Source: a virus
IMG/VR virus record: IMGVR_UViG_3300011271_000003
Span: 1-64,000 of that record
Strand: one strand, 5' to 3'
DNA length: 64,000 bases
This document shows positions 22,523 through 43,902 of the stretch, one piece after another. The position numbers were made by a program, and so were the translations under genes. The notes beneath the pieces were generated by a model. It was not told where the DNA came from, ran no database searches, and saw only the letters and a program-made list of their open reading frames with translations. How positions within the stretch are numbered: position 1 is the stretch's first letter; each line of letters starts with the position of its first letter.

Positions 22523-23270
22523 CGCTTCCTCTCGTTTCCCCAGAGTAGTACGTGCTGTCGAAGTGAGAGACCGTAACCTCGAGCGAGTGTCTCCTTTACG
22601 AGTATCTTGCCCCTGTAGATTTGTCCTTTTGAGGTAGTGCCCTCGGGCATGATCATAACGCAGCAAGGCTGGATGTTACACTCCTTTACGATCTGGTCGA
22701 TTTCGTCGAAGTCGCTGCTGCGAGATACAACGAACTTGAAGTAGGCGCCGCAGAGGTGCAGGTGTCGTAGCACTGCTGGTTTGTATCGCTTGCTACGTAC
22801 GTTACCACTGTTTTCCAGCTTAGGGGAGACGACGAACTGGCTCACGTGGAAACGGAATTCGGATAGCGGCATAATGGTGCCTGCAGTCTCGATATGCCTT
22901 GTACATCCGAGTTCCTGGAGGAGGCGCAGCAGGGGCAGAAGTGCAGACTGCTGCATCATGGGCTCGCCGCCGCTAATTATGATCTTCGTCGGCTTGTTGT
23001 CGATATCCCACAAATTGCGCAGGTGATCTACCACCTCGTCTGCCCCCATCTCGTGACACTCTTCGGCTTTGTCAGACAGAATTGGAATTAGGAGCTTGTC
23101 TGCCTTAGCTTGTGTGACAGCCCAGGTGTAGTGCGTGTCGCACCAGGTGCACTCTAGGTTGCATCCGAAAAGCCTGACGAAGAGGCAGTGCTGTCCCGTG
23201 TAAGGACCTTCGCCCTGCCTAATTGAATAGTCGGACCGAAGATTTCGTTCACCTTCAGGAGACTATTCAT
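22519..23270 (-). CDS. queE: 7-carboxy-7-deazaguanine synthase (radical SAM); frame interrupted by an 8-nt insert at 23215-23222
   Basis: MNSLLKVNEIFGPTIQ in one frame, then GEGPYTG..FVRLFGCNLECTWCDT..ISGGEPM..IETAG..VSPKL in another; AAGGAGG RBS. Confidence 0.88.
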
Positions 23271-23284
23271 AAGACATCACCTCC

Positions 23285-23794
23285 TTAAATGTGGCGCCAG
23301 GTTCGGCGCTTGACGATGCTTGATATGCATGTCTCGGTTACTTGGAACCTTCGGGCTAGGTTACTGATTGGCCACTTACCCTCGTGCAGTCTCCGAATCT
23401 CAAGAACACTTTCTTCGGTCAGCTTTGCTCGCGGATGCGTTTCTCCTAGCAGAAGTGTCCCGTCGCGCCGTCTATCTTCCCCGTTATTCTTGCTGTACGT
23501 TCCCCATACCAGATTTGGAAGAGAGTCGTCTAGAGGGCCTAGAGGTCCGTGGCAGGGAATTTGTCCCTTAGGCCGTGCGCACACGAATGCCTCTAGAACT
23601 AGAACGGCAACTTTACAGTTCTTGCTGCGTCCATTACGCGTAAGGGAAACTATATAATTGCTCCATGTCTGGTTCTTGTGAATCTTACACTTGGAGAGTA
23701 TCTTTCCGTCTAGGTTCCTCACATCACCTTGGTCGGAGACCTCGTAGAGGTCCTCGTAATCTACCACGGGCAGCCAGTGTGCGATGTTAGTCAT
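23285..23794 (-). mobile_element. Free-standing NUMOD4-HNH homing endonuclease
   Basis: W.PVVDYEDLYEVSDQGDVR (NUMOD4); LVLEAFV...CH...NLVWGT...N; C-terminal HTH. Confidence 0.85.
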
Positions 23795-23840: not shown

Positions 23841-24296
23841 TCACCTCCCTGGCCGCGCTACATGGATCGGCTCGTCTAGCGACTTCACGGTTGCTGCGTT
23901 GACTGCCGTCTCATGCACGGTGACGCGTACTGGTAGCTCGAACTCGTTCTCAGCCCAGGCGCAGATCCACCTAGCGATATTTTCTGTCGTGGGGTCATCC
24001 GGTACGCAGGTCAGGCCTGGCAGGTGGTCGTCCTGCTCCTCGATCCCCATAAAGCAGGTCCAGGGGTCGTCCTTGTTCAGCAGGAGGTGGTGGTCGTAGG
24101 TTGAGTTAAGGTAGTGTCGGAACGCTGCCTTCGCAGCCCCGAACTCGATACCGCCCAGGATTCCTTCCTCGTCGATCTCCCCGTAGATTGTGAGCTCAAC
24201 CCACATAGAGTGCCCATGTATGTTCTTGCACTTACCAGCCGTCATAGTTAGTCTATGCGCGACTTCTATGTTGTGCCGAATTGTTATGCTAGGCAT
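23841..24296 (-). CDS. queD: 6-carboxy-5,6,7,8-tetrahydropterin synthase
   Basis: AHRL, CKNIHGHS, DH..LN, PTTENIA, VHET. Confidence 0.92.
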   Translation of the reverse strand: MPSITIRHNIEVAHRLTMTAGKCKNIHGHSMWVELTIYGEIDEEGILGGIEFGAAKAAFRHYLNSTYDHHLLLNKDDPWTCFMGIEEQDDHLPGLTCVPDDPTTENIARWICAWAENEFELPVRVTVHETAVNAATVKSLDEPIHVARPGR

Positions 24297-24929
24297 CCGT
24301 CCTCCCTTGGGTCTTGCGCTTGATCTCCTCTAGAATCGGGATTGGCCTTCGTTCGTGGCCGTGTGGGACAAAACCTGAATCGTGCAGGACATACTCTGGT
24401 GGTTTTCCTTCTAGGAGGTTGCAGAACTCGTCCGCCCACATCTGCGATGCCATCTGATGCTCTGCCGTGACGAGGTTCTTATCGCGCGTGAGAGCGACTG
24501 TTTGCAAGATTGCACCTGCACGCTTGAGAAGGTCTCGGGACCTGACTAGCGGAAAGAACGAGACCTTCTTGCCTCTTGCAACGTTGCGTATTGCTGGGAC
24601 TGAACAACAGATGGCTGCTATTGCAAGATCAGCCGCGTTGGCGTTGTCGAAGACAGTCTGTACTCGCCTGTAGTTCCAGTAGTTCTCGGTGTCCGCCATG
24701 TTGCCGGACACAATCATGACTCCCTGGTACCTCGCCATGTCGTAGGGATCTATGTCGTCTACAAGTAGAGTGATTTTGTTCGGCTGCATAGTGATCTCGT
24801 CCTGGATAATGTAGTCCGTAGAGACGAGGTCAAACGTGTGGCCACGATTCTGGATGACACCAAGGGCCGTCCAGAGTTCATGTCCACTAAATTATAGCGA
24901 CGGGCGCATATAACTAGAACGCGTGTCAC
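24289..24929 (-). CDS. DJ-1/PfpI (class I glutamine amidotransferase-like) protein; frame interrupted by a 5-nt insert at 24886-24890
   Basis: MTRVLVICARRYN, then GHELWTALG... in another frame; GVMIVSG, IAAICCS, DKNLVTA motifs. Confidence 0.75.
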
Positions 24930-24931
24930 TA

Positions 24932-25426
24932 CTAAACCACCGCCCTTCGGTTAATACCTTTTCTGCTCCGGAGCTCAGGTGGTGTCTCCCAAATGTTGAC
25001 GGCCTGAGTTACGGGGCGTGCATGAATTAGACAGAGCTTCTTGTGACACGAATGTGCCAGAACTAGTCCTTCAGGTACTGGTCCGTTATGTGCCACCCAC
25101 CAAAGTACATGAACAGGCTGGCTATTGTAGAGCCCATAGCCTTTCTTATGTACAGCGCCAGTCCACATTCTGCAGCCAGCCTTGTCTATGCGTGAATCAG
25201 CCATAAGGATGGCTATCATTGCTGGACCGTTTTCTAGTGCTAGGCGCGCTGTCTTTTGCTGCGAACTTCTTGCGTTTCCTGACATACAACTTCTACACCA
25301 GGAGTGTCGACCGTCTCTGCGGCCGCTTCCTCGTGGGAAGTCCTTGAACTTCTTCATCTCTCCGCATTTGGTGCATGCGGTTTGTATACCTGACGCAACA
25401 TCTTCTAGGTATACATCGCGAGTCAT
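24932..25426 (-). mobile_element. Free-standing HNH endonuclease with N-terminal zinc finger
   Basis: CTKC...DGRHSWCRSC; CRMWTG..GYG..VH...GPVPEGLVLAHSC..LC..H..VTQAVN. Confidence 0.8.
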
Positions 25427-32516: not shown

Positions 32517-34184
32517 TCAGCTAGTTTCTGGCTTCTTGCTGATGCCTTGCGTGATTCCCTTGTAGATGTCTGCCATTGTCGGGTCGATCATAACATCCGG
32601 TAGATTCCCAGATCTGTCCTTTCCGATATATCCCTCGCGTGCGCCTGTAAGTAGCTTGCGGACAGGCTTGCCGTCTTCTGTCTTCATGTACAGGTAGGTG
32701 ACGACATCGAAGAACCCCGCCACCTCGAACGAGAGCTTCCCTGACAACTGAGGCATGTGCAGGATCGAGCCGTTCAGGGCGTCTTTCTCTTGCCGTTCGT
32801 GAGCTGTCATGATCACGTTGACGGGGAGGTCACGGTACTTGCGAACCCACTTGCGAATCTGCTCTATATTCTTACCCCACCTCCTGATATCCGGAATGTC
32901 TGGGTCCCAGTTCTTCTCTGGTTCTGCCATAAGCAGCTCGGCCATAAGCTGGGACATGTTCATTTTCTGGCACTCGGTAAGAGTATCCAGAATGACAGTG
33001 CGTGGCGCGTACTCTCCAGGTTGTACGCCATTGTAGCAGTTGTGGACGAAGATTCCCGCTCCTATGGCGAAGTTTCTTGTCGAAGTTTGAATGTCGAATG
33101 TGGGCTCTTCTCCTGCTGGCGTTATGGAGACTACTCTGTGGTTTTGCTTATTTTCCTGTAGGATCCTGTAGACGCGCGATACTGATAGATTCAGGTGCTC
33201 TGCTACTTGCATCCGTGTCCAGTCAGGGTGTTCTTGTATAGCAGTCGCAACTTGGTCACGACTGGACCCCTGACCTGGCCTGCCCCTCTTCTCATTGTAG
33301 TACTCCTGTAGTCCCGCTGCACTAGCTTGCTCTGACTCAGAAGTGTGCCACTTGAAGTCTGTCAGCTTAGAGTGATCTCCCCGTGAAAGGCACTCTAGGT
33401 TGTCAGGGTAGTTGTTGAATGTGTTGTTGGGATCAGCATCGTTGCGGTGGTGTACGACCATACCTTCAATATCCATGCCGAAGAACCTCGCTGCGACTCT
33501 GTGCATATACTCCAATGGAGTCGTCCATTTGTTGTCCGGCTTGACTACGTGGTACTGCTTTTTTGACTTACCTACTGTAACGGTGCTCACGGTAGCAGGC
33601 ATCAGCGATGTGCCTCGGATGAGCTTATCTACGCGTGCATAGGTTCCATCGCGCAGCATAAGAAGGTGGTCTCCAGTTGCCCTAAATCGAGAAAGATTCC
33701 CAACTCTGTCGTCGAGTACGACTTCGTATACAGGCTTAACGCCCTGTACGAAGACTTCCTCGACTAGGGCCGGCGTCCAGCCGTCTTCGTCCGTCCACCC
33801 CCAGACCCAGTCTCCCTTTTGTAGGGCGGCTATTAGCCTGTTCCTGTTGAGCGTAATGACTTCGGTGTCACCTGTCAGGCATTGTCGAGCTATCTGATCG
33901 TACACTGCCTCTAGCTGGGCCCAGGAGAGGCTTCCTTCCTCTGGAACCTTTTTGATCTCTGGAGCTGCATGCCGAAGCGTCATGTCCCCGCCCTCAATGT
34001 TGAGGTACAGGACCGGACGCATTGCGGGCACGTGATCCGCCGTAGCAGCCAGGAACGTCTTGCCGACGCCAGGCTGGCCATATATAAGTAGGTTGATATT
34101 GGCACGTGTGTCTCTGACCGGGGCAAAAGGAATGCCCGCGAACGTCTTTGGACTTACGACAACGTTTGCCGCCGGAGTGGTCAC
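32517..34184 (-). CDS. AAA_24/Sak4-like ATPase, intein-containing
   Basis: Walker A GQPGVGKT, Walker B VILDTLT, MTAHE, FFDVV.Y, GKDR. Confidence 0.8.
   Translation of the reverse strand: MTTPAANVVVSPKTFAGIPFAPVRDTRANINLLIYGQPGVGKTFLAATADHVPAMRPVLYLNIEGGDMTLRHAAPEIKKVPEEGSLSWAQLEAVYDQIARQCLTGDTEVITLNRNRLIAALQKGDWVWGWTDEDGWTPALVEEVFVQGVKPVYEVVLDDRVGNLSRFRATGDHLLMLRDGTYARVDKLIRGTSLMPATVSTVTVGKSKKQYHVVKPDNKWTTPLEYMHRVAARFFGMDIEGMVVHHRNDADPNNTFNNYPDNLECLSRGDHSKLTDFKWHTSESEQASAAGLQEYYNEKRGRPGQGSSRDQVATAIQEHPDWTRMQVAEHLNLSVSRVYRILQENKQNHRVVSITPAGEEPTFDIQTSTRNFAIGAGIFVHNCYNGVQPGEYAPRTVILDTLTECQKMNMSQLMAELLMAEPEKNWDPDIPDIRRWGKNIEQIRKWVRKYRDLPVNVIMTAHERQEKDALNGSILHMPQLSGKLSFEVAGFFDVVTYLYMKTEDGKPVRKLLTGAREGYIGKDRSGNLPDVMIDPTMADIYKGITQGISKKPETS
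33039..33881 (-). mobile_element. Intein carrying an HNH endonuclease and an HTH
   Basis: CLTGDT...ATGDH...YMHRV..VVHHRN..NN.PDNLE..H...IFVHN followed by C. Confidence 0.88.
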
Positions 34185-34775
34185 TGGCGCTCCTCTTTGC
34201 ATGGGCTGCCGTTGAGCATACATTCTGCCGCTACAAGTACTGCTTCAGCATAGCCTTCGTCGTGTGACTCCCAGCCATGCTCGCCTTCGACGTGTTCCCA
34301 GAGCTTCTCAGGATCAATTCCGACCGCAAGACCTATACGGTCGCACTCAGTTGGCCTGGGATCGAGGTCTATCCAGGGTTCGCCTACACTCACTGGCGCT
34401 CCAATACGGAGTGGGACGGAGGTACTTGGACGGCTGGTTCCGTAACTGTCCAGGGGCCAGCCTGTTCGCAACCTTTGGTTCTGTCGCAGAAGAACGTTTG
34501 GCGAACATCTATCTGAAGGTGTTTAAGTGCCTCTGCTGCATGTATTGCCAGTGTGTCACCTGTAGGAATGACGGTAAGTGAGTTCTGATGTACTGCATGA
34601 GCGTGTACTGTTACGTCTCCTACGAATCCAGGTTTGGAGCACACACCACACGAGCTACCAAAGACGAACTTCTTCATTCTGACTACCTTTCAGCCTGTTG
34701 TTCTCTTTATCCGCCAGCCGTACCAGGTAGCGATGTCAACATAAGCCTTGGCGAGGCTCCCAGCGGAGAAAGACG

Positions 34776-35267
34776 TTATCTGATGGCACTATCCACCTCT
34801 AGGTTCAGTCTTGCAAACTCTCCGAAAAGTTCCTTCGCTTTCTCATCGTATGCCCTTGCTGCCTCAACCTCATCGTCGAAGTAGCCCAGGTGATAGTGTT
34901 CGCCTGTACAGTTTACGTAAGCAACCCACTTACCTCTTCGCTTGTACCAGGAGACACCTTTGAATCGACTTGACCCTCTACGCGACGTAGAGTTAGCGAG
35001 GTTCTGTGCGTGGGTTGCTTCTCGTAGGTTGGTCCTAACATTGTTTAGTCCGTTTCCGTCTTTGTGGTCAATCTGAACTCTACCCATGATAAGGTTATGC
35101 ATGTAAATATAAGTAGTCTGATAGTCCTTCGTCTTGCTAGCTCTGGCGTACACAAGCCAGGGGTTACAGGTAGGCGTAAAAGGGTACCACTTGCGCCTGC
35201 TAACCAGGTCGTAGTCTTCGTCGTCAATAAAGGCCACGGCGCTACCTACCGGTATCTCTCTCATCAC
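34776..35267 (-). mobile_element. HNH-AP2 homing endonuclease
   Basis: IDHKDGNGLNN..NLR; SRFKGVSW...HLGYF..E.EAARAYD. Confidence 0.9.
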
Positions 35268-37426
35268 TCGCCCCCTTTAGACTCTGTGCTGGCGCCCAAC
35301 TTTTGTCGTACGTAGTACGGGAGTCTTCGCTCATACAGAGTGTTAAGTGTGTACTGATAGTCTTGTCCGGAGTTTTGGGAAATGCAGGGTGTTTGGAAAG
35401 CGCAGAAGTTGCAACCGAATTTTCCAGGGGAAGGGTAAATACGGAGGTTCGGGTCGATCATGTCTCGGACTTCGGCTAGTAGGTTCTTTTCGACCTGATC
35501 CAGTTCGTAGTCGGACTTGTACACAATGAACCTACGGTAGTAATCGGTTCCGGCTGTTTTAAGGTGCTCGAGGAACTCGTCGTACGCACCTTCTTGCCAC
35601 GCCTCTGTGTCGAACTCTTTAATGTGTGCGAGGTAGACTTCGTAGCTCGTGGCCTGATTTACGTTAACGCTAAACAACCTGCCAAGACGTCGCTGCTTGT
35701 TCTCCTTGGGAGGTTCCGGAAATGCTTTACGTTGTTCGTGATAGATGAAACCACGAACGTTCAGATTCAGCTTCTTTCTTAGCGCCATACAATAGCTGTT
35801 TCCTGTTACTACTATCTGGCCATTCTGACGCATTACCCAGGTGCCGAGGCGAGTAGTTGGGCACCAAACTGGTCGAGGCTCTGGCAGATTAGTTGTTACT
35901 ATTGTTCTAGTCCACTTGCGTGGCTCACTTACAACAGTTTGTTGGCACCTCTTGGCGCCATGCTGAGTAGTTGGATACTTGCCTGAGAGGAAAAAAGCTA
36001 GGCAAAATAGGTCGTTCTTCAGTCCTGGGTTCTGGTGGAACTTATTAGAGTGCCCTTCTGCGAGGATGATAGTCTCACAGAATACTTGACGTGCCTTAGG
36101 CGCTAGCCCGAGGACGAACGATTCCCACCCGTCTAGTTCGTAATTGAGCTTGGCCTTGTCTAGTAGCCGCCGGAAGAAAGGAGCACGCAAGTGCCACTTC
36201 AACCCCTGGACGCCCTTTCCTTGGGGTCCGAACCCTCCGCTGAACTTCGAGATGCTAGAGTAGCAGTCGCTAAACCTATCGAGGAGGCTCTGAATCTCTT
36301 TAACGTACTTGCTCTGAGCAATTGTTACCTGAACGCCTCTGGGTCCTCTGCTGATGTTTCCGTCTGACAGCACCCAGGCAATAACAGCTGCCTCGTCAGG
36401 AGTAATATCGTTAGTAGGGTTGTCCAGCTCGGCTGCTAGTACGACGTAGGCTTGTTGTTGTCCGTTCTTGAGCGCCTGAAGCTGATACGCTCCATGGTCT
36501 GGCGTTGTTGTGTGAGTTCGCTTCGCCCATCTATGTTCGGGAGTTGTGATAAAGTCGAAGGACTTTGCTCTAGAACGAACAACGCTCGTTGGTCCATACA
36601 CGTTGACGTCCTCTAGGAGAGTCCACTCTAGAGCGTCTTCTTTTCCGTTATAGCCGAGGACCTCTTCGCCTACGACAAGCTGATTGTGGTGCTTCCAGCC
36701 ACTACGAGTAAGAATTTCTGAGTCAAGTGGTACACAGGCGATTTGATCATCGAGCTCCAGGAAGACTTCACTGGTAGAAAGTTGCGCTGCAGTCTTCCAG
36801 TCCCAGGTGGGCTTTAAAATCCAGTAGTACCCCTCCATGTCGTGAACGACCAAGTCTACGCGCCCGGAGAGAACTACAGGATTTCCAAACCACCTCCCTC
36901 CGCCGTTCTTGGCGAAGGCTTTTCGACAGGTGACACACTTGCAAAAGACTTGCTCGCCGTTCTCGTCTGTCAAAGGTACGTCGAAGCTGGCTTCAACATA
37001 CACGGGAACGTACTTGGCCTGGATGTCTGCAAGCTGATTATTAACGTAGTACCAAATCATCCCCCGGCCTAGACGGACTCGCTCGGAATAGTCTTCTTCG
37101 ACCTCACCTCCGAGCGCTTGCTCTCCGTTAGCGCGTAGGTACTCTCGCATCTGTTGTTCGCAGATGTCGAAGAAGGCCTTCTCGGCTAGGGCCCCCAAAA
37201 CCTTAGGGTGGTATTTCCAGGTTGCCGGGTTATGCAGCACCTCCATCGCCTTATGGTACGCTATTCCGAACTCAAGCGGTTTGGCTGTCACTGTGGGATA
37301 GTAATTCTGTCTGAACAACCAGTTCCACCTACGTCGACATCCTCTGAACGATCTGCGCTCGCTGGTGTGTATCTCGTGCATGAGCCCACGAGCAATCATA
37401 TCCTCAGCGTAGACAGCTAGGGCCAC
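35264..37426 (-). CDS. Cas4-like PD-(D/E)XK exonuclease, intein-containing, with a 12-nt in-frame insert at 36806-36817
   Basis: SERRSFRGCRRRW, FGIAYHKAME, GRVDLV, DWKT, C-terminal CNFCAFQTPC. Confidence 0.85.
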   Translation of the reverse strand: MALAVYAEDMIARGLMHEIHTSERRSFRGCRRRWNWLFRQNYYPTVTAKPLEFGIAYHKAMEVLHNPATWKYHPKVLGALAEKAFFDICEQQMREYLRANGEQALGGEVEEDYSERVRLGRGMIWYYVNNQLADIQAKYVPVYVEASFDVPLTDENGEQVFCKCVTCRKAFAKNGGGRWFGNPVVLSGRVDLVVHDMEGYYWILKPTWDWKTAAQLSTSEVFLELDDQIACVPLDSEILTRSGWKHHNQLVVGEEVLGYNGKEDALEWTLLEDVNVYGPTSVVRSRAKSFDFITTPEHRWAKRTHTTTPDHGAYQLQALKNGQQQAYVVLAAELDNPTNDITPDEAAVIAWVLSDGNISRGPRGVQVTIAQSKYVKEIQSLLDRFSDCYSSISKFSGGFGPQGKGVQGLKWHLRAPFFRRLLDKAKLNYELDGWESFVLGLAPKARQVFCETIILAEGHSNKFHQNPGLKNDLFCLAFFLSGKYPTTQHGAKRCQQTVVSEPRKWTRTIVTTNLPEPRPVWCPTTRLGTWVMRQNGQIVVTGNSYCMALRKKLNLNVRGFIYHEQRKAFPEPPKENKQRRLGRLFSVNVNQATSYEVYLAHIKEFDTEAWQEGAYDEFLEHLKTAGTDYYRRFIVYKSDYELDQVEKNLLAEVRDMIDPNLRIYPSPGKFGCNFCAFQTPCISQNSGQDYQYTLNTLYERRLPYYVRQKLGASTESKGGE
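35798..36736 (-). mobile_element. Intein (LAGLIDADG-type, ends in GN) in the Cas4-like nuclease
   Basis: CVPLDS...TPEHRW...WVLSDG...ILAEG...VWCPTT..VVTGN followed by S. Confidence 0.88.
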
Positions 37427-42031: not shown

Positions 42032-42361
42032 CTACTCCTCCCATTGTACGTGTCCGTATTTACGCAGGGCCTCGCTCAGTCGGCGAACCTTCGCTGCTAT
42101 TGCTTCGTCGTCCATCATGCCTCGGCTGTATTTATGGTGGTCAACGTAGGGGTCGTAGGCCTTAGTAGGTCCCTCGTCGTAGAAGCACCAGAGACACGTC
42201 TATGTTAGGTCTCCTGTTAGACCCTGGATACACTCGAACTTGCAGTGGCAGTGCCTGCATACAACCCAGACCCATACGTAGGGCCTGTGTGTCCTTGCGT
42301 CCCTTGCTGACCGTCCATCTCTACAAGGACCTGGAACCTTAATGTCGGTTCTGTCGACTAT
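42032..42361 (-). pseudogene. Zinc-ribbon ORF with internal TAG and no canonical start
   Basis: Frame IVDRT...CRHC..C...DLT*TCLWC...WEE* fills the gap after the helicase. Confidence 0.4.
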
Positions 42362-43902
42362 AATAGGTCCCTCCCGAAGATTCGTTGTGCGTCCGCCATT
42401 GCTTCCTGTATTAGGGGGTCTGCGGCTGTCATTCCGTACGCCTCAGGGTCCACGGTATCTCCTAGCAGGAACCTTAGGTCTTCCCATTTCTGGGAGATAA
42501 CCGTCCTGCGTCCGATGTCCACGGTATTCTTTGCCATTATGTCGATGATGTGGACTGCGTTCTTTTGTCCGATGCGGTGCTGACGATCTTCAGCCTGTAT
42601 GTTTTTTGTAGGGGACCAATGTCGATCAAGAAATATGCCTGTGCTCGCTGCATGGAGCGTGATGCCCTCGCCACCAGCAGCGATTGTCCCGGCGAAAACA
42701 TGCAAGTCACCCCGTTGGAATGCTTCGACAGCAAGATCACGTTCTGTCTGGGGGACCGTACCTGTATAACGGCCGACTGATATTTTATTAGCCTCCAGCC
42801 TCTGGGCAGCGAGATCGACCATGCTTCGGAATTGCGACCAGACAACAAGCTGTTCAGTGGGGTTTCCACTAACCATTTCCTCCAGTGCATCTAGCTTGGC
42901 GGACGGCTCGATCAGAGTGGTTGTCATTCTTCGTTCCGGCTCGGGCTCCTCTCTTGCTTCGAGCGCACGCGCTCGTGCAGTCCTGGTTATAACGTACTTG
43001 TAGCCAATCTCTACTGATGCCAGAGCAAACTGCTGCAGCCTCACCAATTGCGCAATTACAACAGGCGCCACTAGAGGTTCATCTTCATGCTCGCCAACCC
43101 AAGCGATCATGTCCTTGCGCATCTGGTTGTACGCCTTACGTTGAGCTGGTCCGAGCTCAACCCAGACGTCTGAGTAATACTTCTCTGGCAGATCTTGAAG
43201 TACCTCTCTCTTAAGTCGTCGCACATACCACGGGCGCATCTCAGCTATAAGGTGCGGAGTGGTCTCCCTGTTGGGCTTGTTATAGTTTCGGAACGTTGCT
43301 CCGTTCTTCCCCTCAACTATCTGTTCCACGCAGTAGGTCTTTACGTGTCGCCAATAACTCGTGTAGCGCTTTGGATACAACCAATTCAGAATAGACCAGA
43401 TGTCTGCTGGCCTGTTGTCTGCCGGTGTCCCTGACAGGCCAGTCTTGTACCTAGCTGGTAGAGCCTTCAGCGCTCGGGTTTGTTGTGCTTTTCTCGACTT
43501 TGCGCGGTGACATTCGTCAGCGATGATGTGGAACCAGGATACCCTGCGCAACTCCGGCATAAGCCGTAGGGCCTCGTAGTGAATGATATAGCAGGTGTAG
43601 TTCTGTGACAGAGCCTTAACAAATGCTGGCCGGTCCTTCCTATCGATTACGTAGATTCTCGCTGTGGGCCAGACTAGCTTTATATGCCTTACCCAAGCAT
43701 CCTGGTGTGTCGCTAGCGGCGCTATGATCAGCGTCTTCCTTTTGGGTCCGCCCTTCACGTAGGTCTCGATACGCAGCTTGTAGTCGATCCAGAGCGCTTC
43801 AGGCGTCTTTCCCAATCCCATTTCGTCTGCGATGAGACGAGACAGGAGTGTTGGTATGCCTACCTTGTCGACACACTCCTGCTGGAATGGACGTGGCTCC
43901 AA
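42358..43902 (-). CDS. SNF2-family helicase
   Basis: ADEMGLGKT, IADECH, LSGTP, GEGITL, QAEDRQHRIGQ. Confidence 0.93.
   Translation of the reverse strand: MEPRPFQQECVDKVGIPTLLSRLIADEMGLGKTPEALWIDYKLRIETYVKGGPKRKTLIIAPLATHQDAWVRHIKLVWPTARIYVIDRKDRPAFVKALSQNYTCYIIHYEALRLMPELRRVSWFHIIADECHRAKSRKAQQTRALKALPARYKTGLSGTPADNRPADIWSILNWLYPKRYTSYWRHVKTYCVEQIVEGKNGATFRNYNKPNRETTPHLIAEMRPWYVRRLKREVLQDLPEKYYSDVWVELGPAQRKAYNQMRKDMIAWVGEHEDEPLVAPVVIAQLVRLQQFALASVEIGYKYVITRTARARALEAREEPEPERRMTTTLIEPSAKLDALEEMVSGNPTEQLVVWSQFRSMVDLAAQRLEANKISVGRYTGTVPQTERDLAVEAFQRGDLHVFAGTIAAGGEGITLHAASTGIFLDRHWSPTKNIQAEDRQHRIGQKNAVHIIDIMAKNTVDIGRRTVISQKWEDLRFLLGDTVDPEAYGMTAADPLIQEAMADAQRIFGRDLL

Follow-up and report, generated by a model that had tools for sequence, protein, structure and literature searches.

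How can a protein be made from a gene in which the codons for its first strand and the rest of its reading frame are set apart by five extra bases, and what brought those bases there? The question is raised by a DJ-1/PfpI gene found in the window analysed here, which covers the initial 64 kb of a virus record of 98.8 kb (55% G+C). The gene is part of a 7-deazaguanine cluster encoded on the minus strand in the order queC, a conserved partner gene (geneX), an HNH gene, DJ-1/PfpI, queD, a NUMOD4/HNH gene and queE. The five bases are a real and non-random coding gap, linked to an endonuclease gene and led by a codon that the genome nearly forbids. The best explanation, to which we give a probability of about 0.5, is that ribosomes would cross the gap by a short hop from AAU to AGU, triggered by a UUA that is hard to decode, over an insert associated with the endonuclease.

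A DJ-1/PfpI gene interrupted after its first strand

Upstream of the DJ-1/PfpI gene, the minus strand carries queC (27985-26186), geneX (25923-25426, 165 aa, no Pfam or PHROG match) and a free-standing gene of 164 aa for an HNH homing-type endonuclease (25426-24932); queD (24296-23841) lies downstream. The queC gene appears to contain an intein: in its 599-aa product the Pfam QueC match is split around an intein-like insert of about 300 aa that begins with CLAPGTKVL and finishes with SHNS. The HNH gene terminates at a TAG (24934-24932) and the GTG start codon of DJ-1/PfpI follows two bases later at 24929, preceded by a ribosome-binding site (GGCGGTGG).

The first 13 codons of DJ-1/PfpI (24929-24891; MTRVLVICARRYN) correspond to strand beta-1 and end with an AAU (24893-24891) that is the candidate take-off codon. 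Past this AAT, frame 0 reads TTA GTG GAC ATG and terminates after 56 aa. The main frame starts at 24885 with GGA CAT GAA (G-H-E), in the +2 frame, and runs for 198 aa to the stop at 24289, with the AAICCS nucleophile motif conserved. As this frame is closed upstream by a TAA at 24894-24892, the ORF list gives only a 166-aa piece from the ATG at 24789. Between the two parts lies an insert of exactly five bases, TTAGT (24890-24886), comprising the UUA at 24890-24888 and the overlapping AGU at 24888-24886; because of the flanking T it can equally be written TTTAG.

The two parts are contiguous in homologs. In an alignment with 29 homologs (56-75% identity), the long piece follows the 13-aa piece with no gap, and the residues Y, N, G, H, E, L and W at the junction are at least 90% conserved. 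Among the best 120 database homologs, [YF]N is directly followed by G[HN]E in 105, the remainder being mostly shorter gene calls, and all 40 uninterrupted IMG/VR loci read TAY AAY GGN CAY GAR at this point. The layout and these alignments bear out the preliminary description, which had claimed a gene split by a 5-nt insert, with its first beta-strand out of frame with GHELW, a main-frame TAA just upstream, an ORF truncated at 24789 and an HNH gene finishing at 24932, and which had expected homologs to be contiguous at RYNGHE.

The long piece matched Pfam DJ-1_PfpI (PF01965) with 33.3 bits (cut-off 26.6), and the match begins only at profile position 15, which indicates that strand beta-1 is missing from it. 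The nucleophile-elbow cysteine (C105/C106) is invariant. An AlphaFold (AF2) model of the closest full-length homolog (P0002, 75-78% identical; pLDDT 94.5) puts the N|G junction at the helix alpha-1 N-cap, immediately behind strand beta-1, and Foldseek matched PfpI and DJ-1 structures with a TM of up to 0.89. Judged by its profile, its predicted fold and its nucleophile-elbow cysteine, the protein is a member of the DJ-1/PfpI superfamily. In an alignment to human DJ-1, the Glu of GHE would correspond to Glu18, the partner of the nucleophile cysteine.

In every locus examined, geneX and DJ-1 are adjacent and lie within queC/D/E clusters. Megablast searches of cultured phages with the cluster and tblastn searches with DJ-1 gave no match, and the GTDB genome contigs contained no DJ-1 relative. 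Since no similarity to cultured phages was found, a role of the DJ-1 protein in tailoring the 7-deazaguanine base is one that we infer, and a plausible one. Gat-QueC fusions of phages make dG+ (PMC6884629).

Insert alleles behind endonuclease genes

The protein encoded between geneX and DJ-1 combines an N-terminal CxxC...CxxC zinc-finger-like part with an HNH_3 core (Pfam HNH_3 E 5e-6; PHROG HNH endonuclease families, E down to 4e-12; 25426-24932). In 42 related loci free of the insert, the end of the geneX homolog and the start of DJ-1 are 0 to about 180 nt apart (359 nt in a single locus), and none of these loci has an HNH homolog.

Four lineages with an endonuclease gene at this place were compared. 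In the window the site reads AAT TTAGT GGA (5 nt). A second phage, L004 (IMGVR_UViG_3300012353_000129), carries an HNH homolog (49-61% identical) and reads TAC AAT TAGT GGC, a 4-nt insert with UAG in frame 0; the same 4-nt allele, again with an HNH homolog, is present in L044, which comes from another dataset and is 99.7% identical to L004. The third phage, L164 (an 86.8-kb record, 95% complete), has a different HNH gene (phrog_99, E 3e-24) and reads TTC AAT TTAAGC GGC, a 6-nt insert that remains in frame and encodes N-L-S-G. The fourth lineage, L043, has an HNH homolog and a contiguous site, indicating that the insert is not obligatory for carriage of the nuclease. An insert at the exact codon boundary is therefore found in three of the four endonuclease-bearing lineages and in none of the 42 endonuclease-free loci (Fisher p = 2.6e-4); inserts at the DJ-1 site were seen only behind endonuclease genes, so that the HNH link proposed in the preliminary description is real and statistically significant. 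The same codon boundary being hit in a second phage, in two independent assemblies, and in a third, the insert is not a chance event. The frame-0 codon after AAU is UUA in the window and L164 and UAG in L004, and an AGY immediately precedes the codon at which the conserved frame resumes in all three alleles. According to the preliminary description, homologs that start at MQPN or have two extra residues here would speak against it. Homologs do not start at MQPN; one of them, L164, does have two extra residues (L-S) at this very place, which as worded goes against the description.

The HNH homologs of L004 (1914-2336) and L043 (517-942) and the database protein P0123, also an HNH homolog, share their core with the window gene (24935-25426). 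These homologs carry the CxxC/CxxC zinc-finger-like segment at the C-terminus, whereas the window protein has it at the N-terminus, which looks like a domain permutation. The 8-mer TTAGTAGT occurs at 24928-24935 in the window and at about 2358-2365 in L004, 20-40 nt upstream of both inserts; it stands at different codon positions in the two and may be due to chance.

Broken alleles can acquire false N-termini: MHVATIS... arises from an in-frame GTG in L004 (2369-3022), and MTIQGEG... from a TTG made by the insert in the queE gene of another phage, L046 (1989-2711; see below). Database proteins such as P0035, the L004 gene call, and P0085 consequently hide the gaps. P0085 begins MLVATISGHELW, with the same out-of-frame ATIS as P0035 but in a distant DJ-1 clade, and probably marks another 4-nt allele, judging from this N-terminus; P0110 is truncated like the gene call of the window. 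Scanning IMG/VR with an IUPAC pattern for alleles of 4-6 nt returned the L004 contig only, and a word-biased protein search for further ATIS (4-nt) alleles gave no new ones. Gene callers truncate such genes, as illustrated by the 166-aa fragment of the window, so that annotation understates the metabolic pathways of uncultured phages.

In a quick maximum-likelihood tree of DJ-1, the alleles bearing inserts and endonucleases were scattered and well-supported branches forced at least three origins. This scattering implies that the cassette moves horizontally between phages, as homing elements do, and intact flanks alone are therefore no proof of function. The gene could be dead, the insert being a scar or an immunity mark spread selfishly by the endonuclease in a phage that dispenses with the enzyme and perhaps with its own QueE. 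Homing elements can indeed spread mildly harmful changes and, the alleles being polyphyletic, each invasion could be recent. We nevertheless consider a dead gene rather unlikely. Each gene has a single lesion, always within the same 4-6 nt, and the remaining ORF and the near-invariant residues are intact, as are queD, queC and the partner gene beside the broken DJ-1; the 4-nt allele is in circulation, being present in at least two samples; and the terminal branches of the insert-bearing alleles are of ordinary length (0.19, 0.22 and 0.46, compared to a median of 0.24). Furthermore, the 13 leading codons have the nuclease gene on one side and the insert on the other and must therefore move as part of the cassette; a comparison of the window with L004 shows 8 synonymous and 3 non-synonymous differences in them (p = 1.6e-4). 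This synonymous-biased divergence argues that the leading codons are translated into something useful. Whole-gene dN/dS was uninformative, synonymous sites being saturated.

A near-forbidden codon and parallel inserts

The codon following the AAU is nearly forbidden in this genome. In ORFs of at least 150 aa, TTA accounts for 8 of 17,790 codons where about 126 are expected from positional base composition; it is the rarest sense codon of the genome, the second-rarest being used 109 times, and in the +1 frame of the same ORFs it occurs 264 times. ARAGORN and Rfam found no tRNA gene and no Rfam family in the window. In the L046 phage (record G002, 10001-50000, ORFs of at least 150 aa), TTA is absent from 8,821 codons at 48.8% G+C, with about 87 expected, and from these counts appears to behave like an unassigned codon. 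It is also the rarest codon of the L164 phage (9 of 7,820). The L004 phage, the insert of which has UAG instead, shows a mild depletion (8 of 2,030). The best matches of the primase are from actinobacteriophages, at 27-29% identity only, and from these distant matches the host would be an actinobacterium; that it reads UUA poorly, as hosts of the Streptomyces bldA type do, is plausible. One in-frame TTA, at 42361-42363 on the minus strand, is the last sense codon of a helicase gene (CTA TTA TAG). Searching the genome crudely for a TTA with a frame switch behind it gave no distinction between TTA and the remaining codons.

The layout seen at DJ-1 recurs at queE, as the preliminary description had stated. 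A second endonuclease gene (NUMOD4 plus HNH-type, 23794-23285, minus strand) lies directly upstream of queE, and queE contains an 8-nt insert (23222-23215) between the CAA of Gln16 and GGC GAA GGT. The site reads ATT CAA|TTAGGCAG|GGC GAA GGT, the insert opens with TTA, and its removal restores the canonical FGPTIQGEG, a motif that is unbroken in 79 of 80 related loci. The other broken queE is that of the closest relative, L046, which reads ACT|TGACC|ATC: a 5-nt insert in which ACU and ACC flank a UGA. This gene, too, lies directly behind an endonuclease-type gene (phrog_5046, E 5e-11), the stop codon of the nuclease overlapping the queE start.

A third insert in the window genome was found in an exonuclease gene (35264-37426, minus strand): 12 nt in frame at 36817-36806 (TTAAAGCCCACC, encoding LKPT), again led by TTA and absent from the closest homolog. 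About 20 codons further on, similarity to the closest homolog breaks at DDQIA|C (about 36700-36760) and the protein continues with CVPLDSEILTRSGWK, apparently the beginning of an intein, so that this TTA-led insert would also be located beside a mobile element. In a separate gene for a Sak4-like annealing protein (phrog_124; 32517-34223, minus strand), residues 220-363 or so match HNH-endonuclease PHROGs, and the middle of the gene is possibly another intein or endonuclease insertion, as these matches suggest.

All three inserts of the window genome begin with TTA, a trinucleotide with a frequency of 0.0073 (p ~4e-7). In the four frame-breaking cases, the first codon of the insert is always TTA or a stop (p ~3e-6), and a scar left in a dead gene makes no such prediction.

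The parallel inserts also bear on the quality of the sequence. Both window genes might result from assembly or sequencing errors, the true form at DJ-1 being an in-frame 6-nt TTAAGT that lost one A, and queE being likewise one base short. An A added after TTA does put both genes in frame (TTA AGT; TTA AGG CAG) and an in-frame 6-nt allele exists in L164. Such an origin is very improbable all the same: a contig of 98.8 kb that is otherwise well behaved would have had to lose a base twice, independently and each time from an AA pair; independent assemblies contain alleles in which inserts of other lengths break the frame (4 nt in L004 and L044, 5 nt in the queE gene of L046); and a queE repaired by one A would still have three extra residues in its invariant motif.

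A possible ribosomal hop and known bypassing systems

We propose that the five-base gap came with, or was selected because of, the upstream HNH gene. It lies in the most conserved DJ-1/PfpI DNA, that of the loop before the helix alpha-1 carrying the putative active-site Glu. By analogy with T4 mobA/gene 60, the gap would probably destroy the target of the nuclease, so that the genome carrying it is not cut. Ribosomes would read the 13 codons and stall with peptidyl-tRNA(Asn) on AAU, the next codon, UUA, being almost undecodable in the host. The mRNA would then slide by five bases, the tRNA re-pairing with AGU through a G-U pair at the middle position, and translation would resume at GGA to give the canonical ...RYNGHELW... 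protein, which would carry the tryptic junction peptide YNGHELWTALGVIQNR. We infer the bypassing itself, the landing codon and the protection from the nuclease, whereas the insert and its exact position, its tie to endonuclease genes, the scarcity of TTA and the 4-, 5- and 6-nt alleles are observed.

Several observations argue for this hop. Firstly, the inserts fall in all three frame classes (4, 5 and 6 nt) and the rest of the gene is open, as is expected if the insert is not translated; two random indels within the same 6 nt of a 640-nt gene are unlikely. Secondly, a hop is the only route by which each of the four frame-breaking cases recovers its invariant motif exactly. Thirdly, the codon before the resumption point equals or approximates the take-off codon, with AGY for AAU, CAG for CAA and ACC for ACU, and the hop explains why take-off is always followed by a slow or undecodable codon. 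The hop is weakened at DJ-1 because AGU is only near-cognate for tRNA(Asn), the published cases using matched or wobble-matched codons; take-off and landing codons do match in queE (CAA/CAG) and in L046 (ACU/ACC). It is also weakened by the in-frame L-S of L164, which indicates that two extra residues may be tolerated, and by L043, with its nuclease gene but no insert. The queE leader (23180-23285, minus strand) folds better than shuffled sequences (z = -3.17, 0 of 200) and allows a perfect 9-bp helix between the start-codon region (UGAAUAGUC) and GACUAUUCA, ending in the take-off CAA. Also against the hop at DJ-1, no significant local fold was found around the site (z = -0.39); an 8-bp helix, weaker than that of queE, is possible between the start-codon region (24932-24925) and 24901-24894, just 5' of AAU.

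The extra residues of L164 would also suit a one-base shift, in which UUA is read as Leu, a -1 slip takes the tRNA from UUA to UUU, and AGU GGA are then read to give ...RYN-L-S-GHELW; in L004, a +1 shift at AAU-UAG would give N-S-G. As the in-frame TTA AGC of L164 yields N-L-S-G at this very position, such residues are perhaps compatible with function; tRNA(Leu,UAA) can retain two of three pairs on UUU, and the AGY conserved in all three alleles would simply be a Ser codon. A shift is unlikely, however. The site, U AAU UUA, does not have the X XXY YYZ form of a slippery heptamer, the stretch 5-9 nt downstream showed no stimulatory structure, and UUA would have to be decoded although the genome shuns it. 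The alleles would, moreover, require different shifts (-1 and +1). At queE a -1 slip is impossible (CAA UUA, with AUU as the -1 codon), and a shift would put three residues into the invariant FGPTIQGEG.

Two further candidates were rejected. Re-initiation fails as a general answer, there being no ATG, GTG or TTG in the target frame between the TAA at 24894 and the ATG at 24789; queE likewise has no in-frame start, and L004 (GTG) and L046 (TTG) do have one. Transcriptional slippage was rejected as the longest run is only T3.

If a hop does take place, the case at DJ-1 may not stand alone. More tentatively, we suggest a family of endonuclease-borne 'micro-gaps' of 4-12 nt in soil actinophage-like viruses, opening with an undecodable codon (UUA if the host hardly reads it, UAG or UGA elsewhere) and skipped by ribosomes, which would erase nuclease targets with no change to the protein. 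In the window phage, synthesis of QueE and of the DJ-1-fold enzyme, both from the 7-deazaguanine DNA-modification cluster, might thereby depend on the status of the host tRNA-Leu(UAA) and so sense the physiology of the host, an idea already put forward for phiHau3.

Natural bypassing is known from very few systems: gene 60 of T4 and its relatives, the mitochondria of Magnusiomyces and, still provisionally, the phiHau3 terminase. In the large terminase gene of phiHau3, a Streptomyces phage, there are two UUA-led gaps of 10 nt, and two prophages have UUA-led terminase gaps of 7 nt (PMC10732093). Such gaps were described by Smith et al. 2013 and were discussed and tested in RNA Biol 2023, where a junction peptide of the phiHau3 type was seen by mass spectrometry in E. 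coli (PMC10732093). The window site resembles phiHau3 in having a short frame-breaking insert with UUA first (AAT TTA GT|GGA, 24893-24883) in a genome where UUA is extremely rare, in the flanks being contiguous in homologs at a highly conserved junction, and in bypass being proposed because a one-base shift would add residues. It differs in that the gap is 5 nt with a landing codon that is only near-cognate, in that the gene belongs to a 7-deazaguanine cluster and not to packaging, in the tie to a homing-endonuclease gene directly upstream (the words HNH and homing each have 0 occurrences in PMC10732093), and in the presence of alleles of 0, 4, 5 and 6 nt, one with UAG in place of UUA.

In T4 mobA/gene 60, an HNH homing endonuclease is associated with a translational bypass of 50 nt (PMC5009743). 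In the MobA cassette the take-off codon has a stop or hungry codon behind it, endonucleases have been exchanged, and self-nicking is prevented by the insert (Manning and Atkins, bioRxiv 10.1101/2022.08.31.505936). The window shares with this system an endonuclease gene directly 5' of the interrupted gene (there is none in the insert-free relatives), a non-coding insert located some tens of nt inside conserved coding sequence, a take-off codon followed by a stop or 'hungry' codon, and swaps of endonuclease at the same site; protection by the insert against self-cleavage is proposed for the window by analogy. In contrast to gene 60, there is no sequence homology or gene 60 similarity, the gene is not split, the gap is 5 nt and not 50 nt, neither a take-off stem-loop nor an internal Shine-Dalgarno was detected in the window, and take-off and landing codons do not match (AAU and AGU). 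The L043 lineage, which has the nuclease gene but no insert, is a further difference. The byp elements of Magnusiomyces capitatus mitochondria measure 27-55 nt (PMC5009743). They are similar in that many genes of one genome contain inserts that are bypassed, with an unused codon next to the take-off codon, and differ in being mitochondrial, longer, GC-cluster-like mobile elements without an endonuclease gene beside each.

Because alleles of 0, 4, 5 and 6 nt, led by UUA or UAG, occur naturally at a single codon boundary, the site is an unusually clean substrate for reporter and mass-spectrometry tests. The gap in the window combines features of phiHau3 and of T4 gene 60 and, as far as its sequence and these analogies go, has about an even chance of being bypassed by the ribosome. 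The site would then unite a short hop triggered by UUA or a stop codon with a homing endonuclease as the reason for the insert, two ideas that are separate in the works cited.
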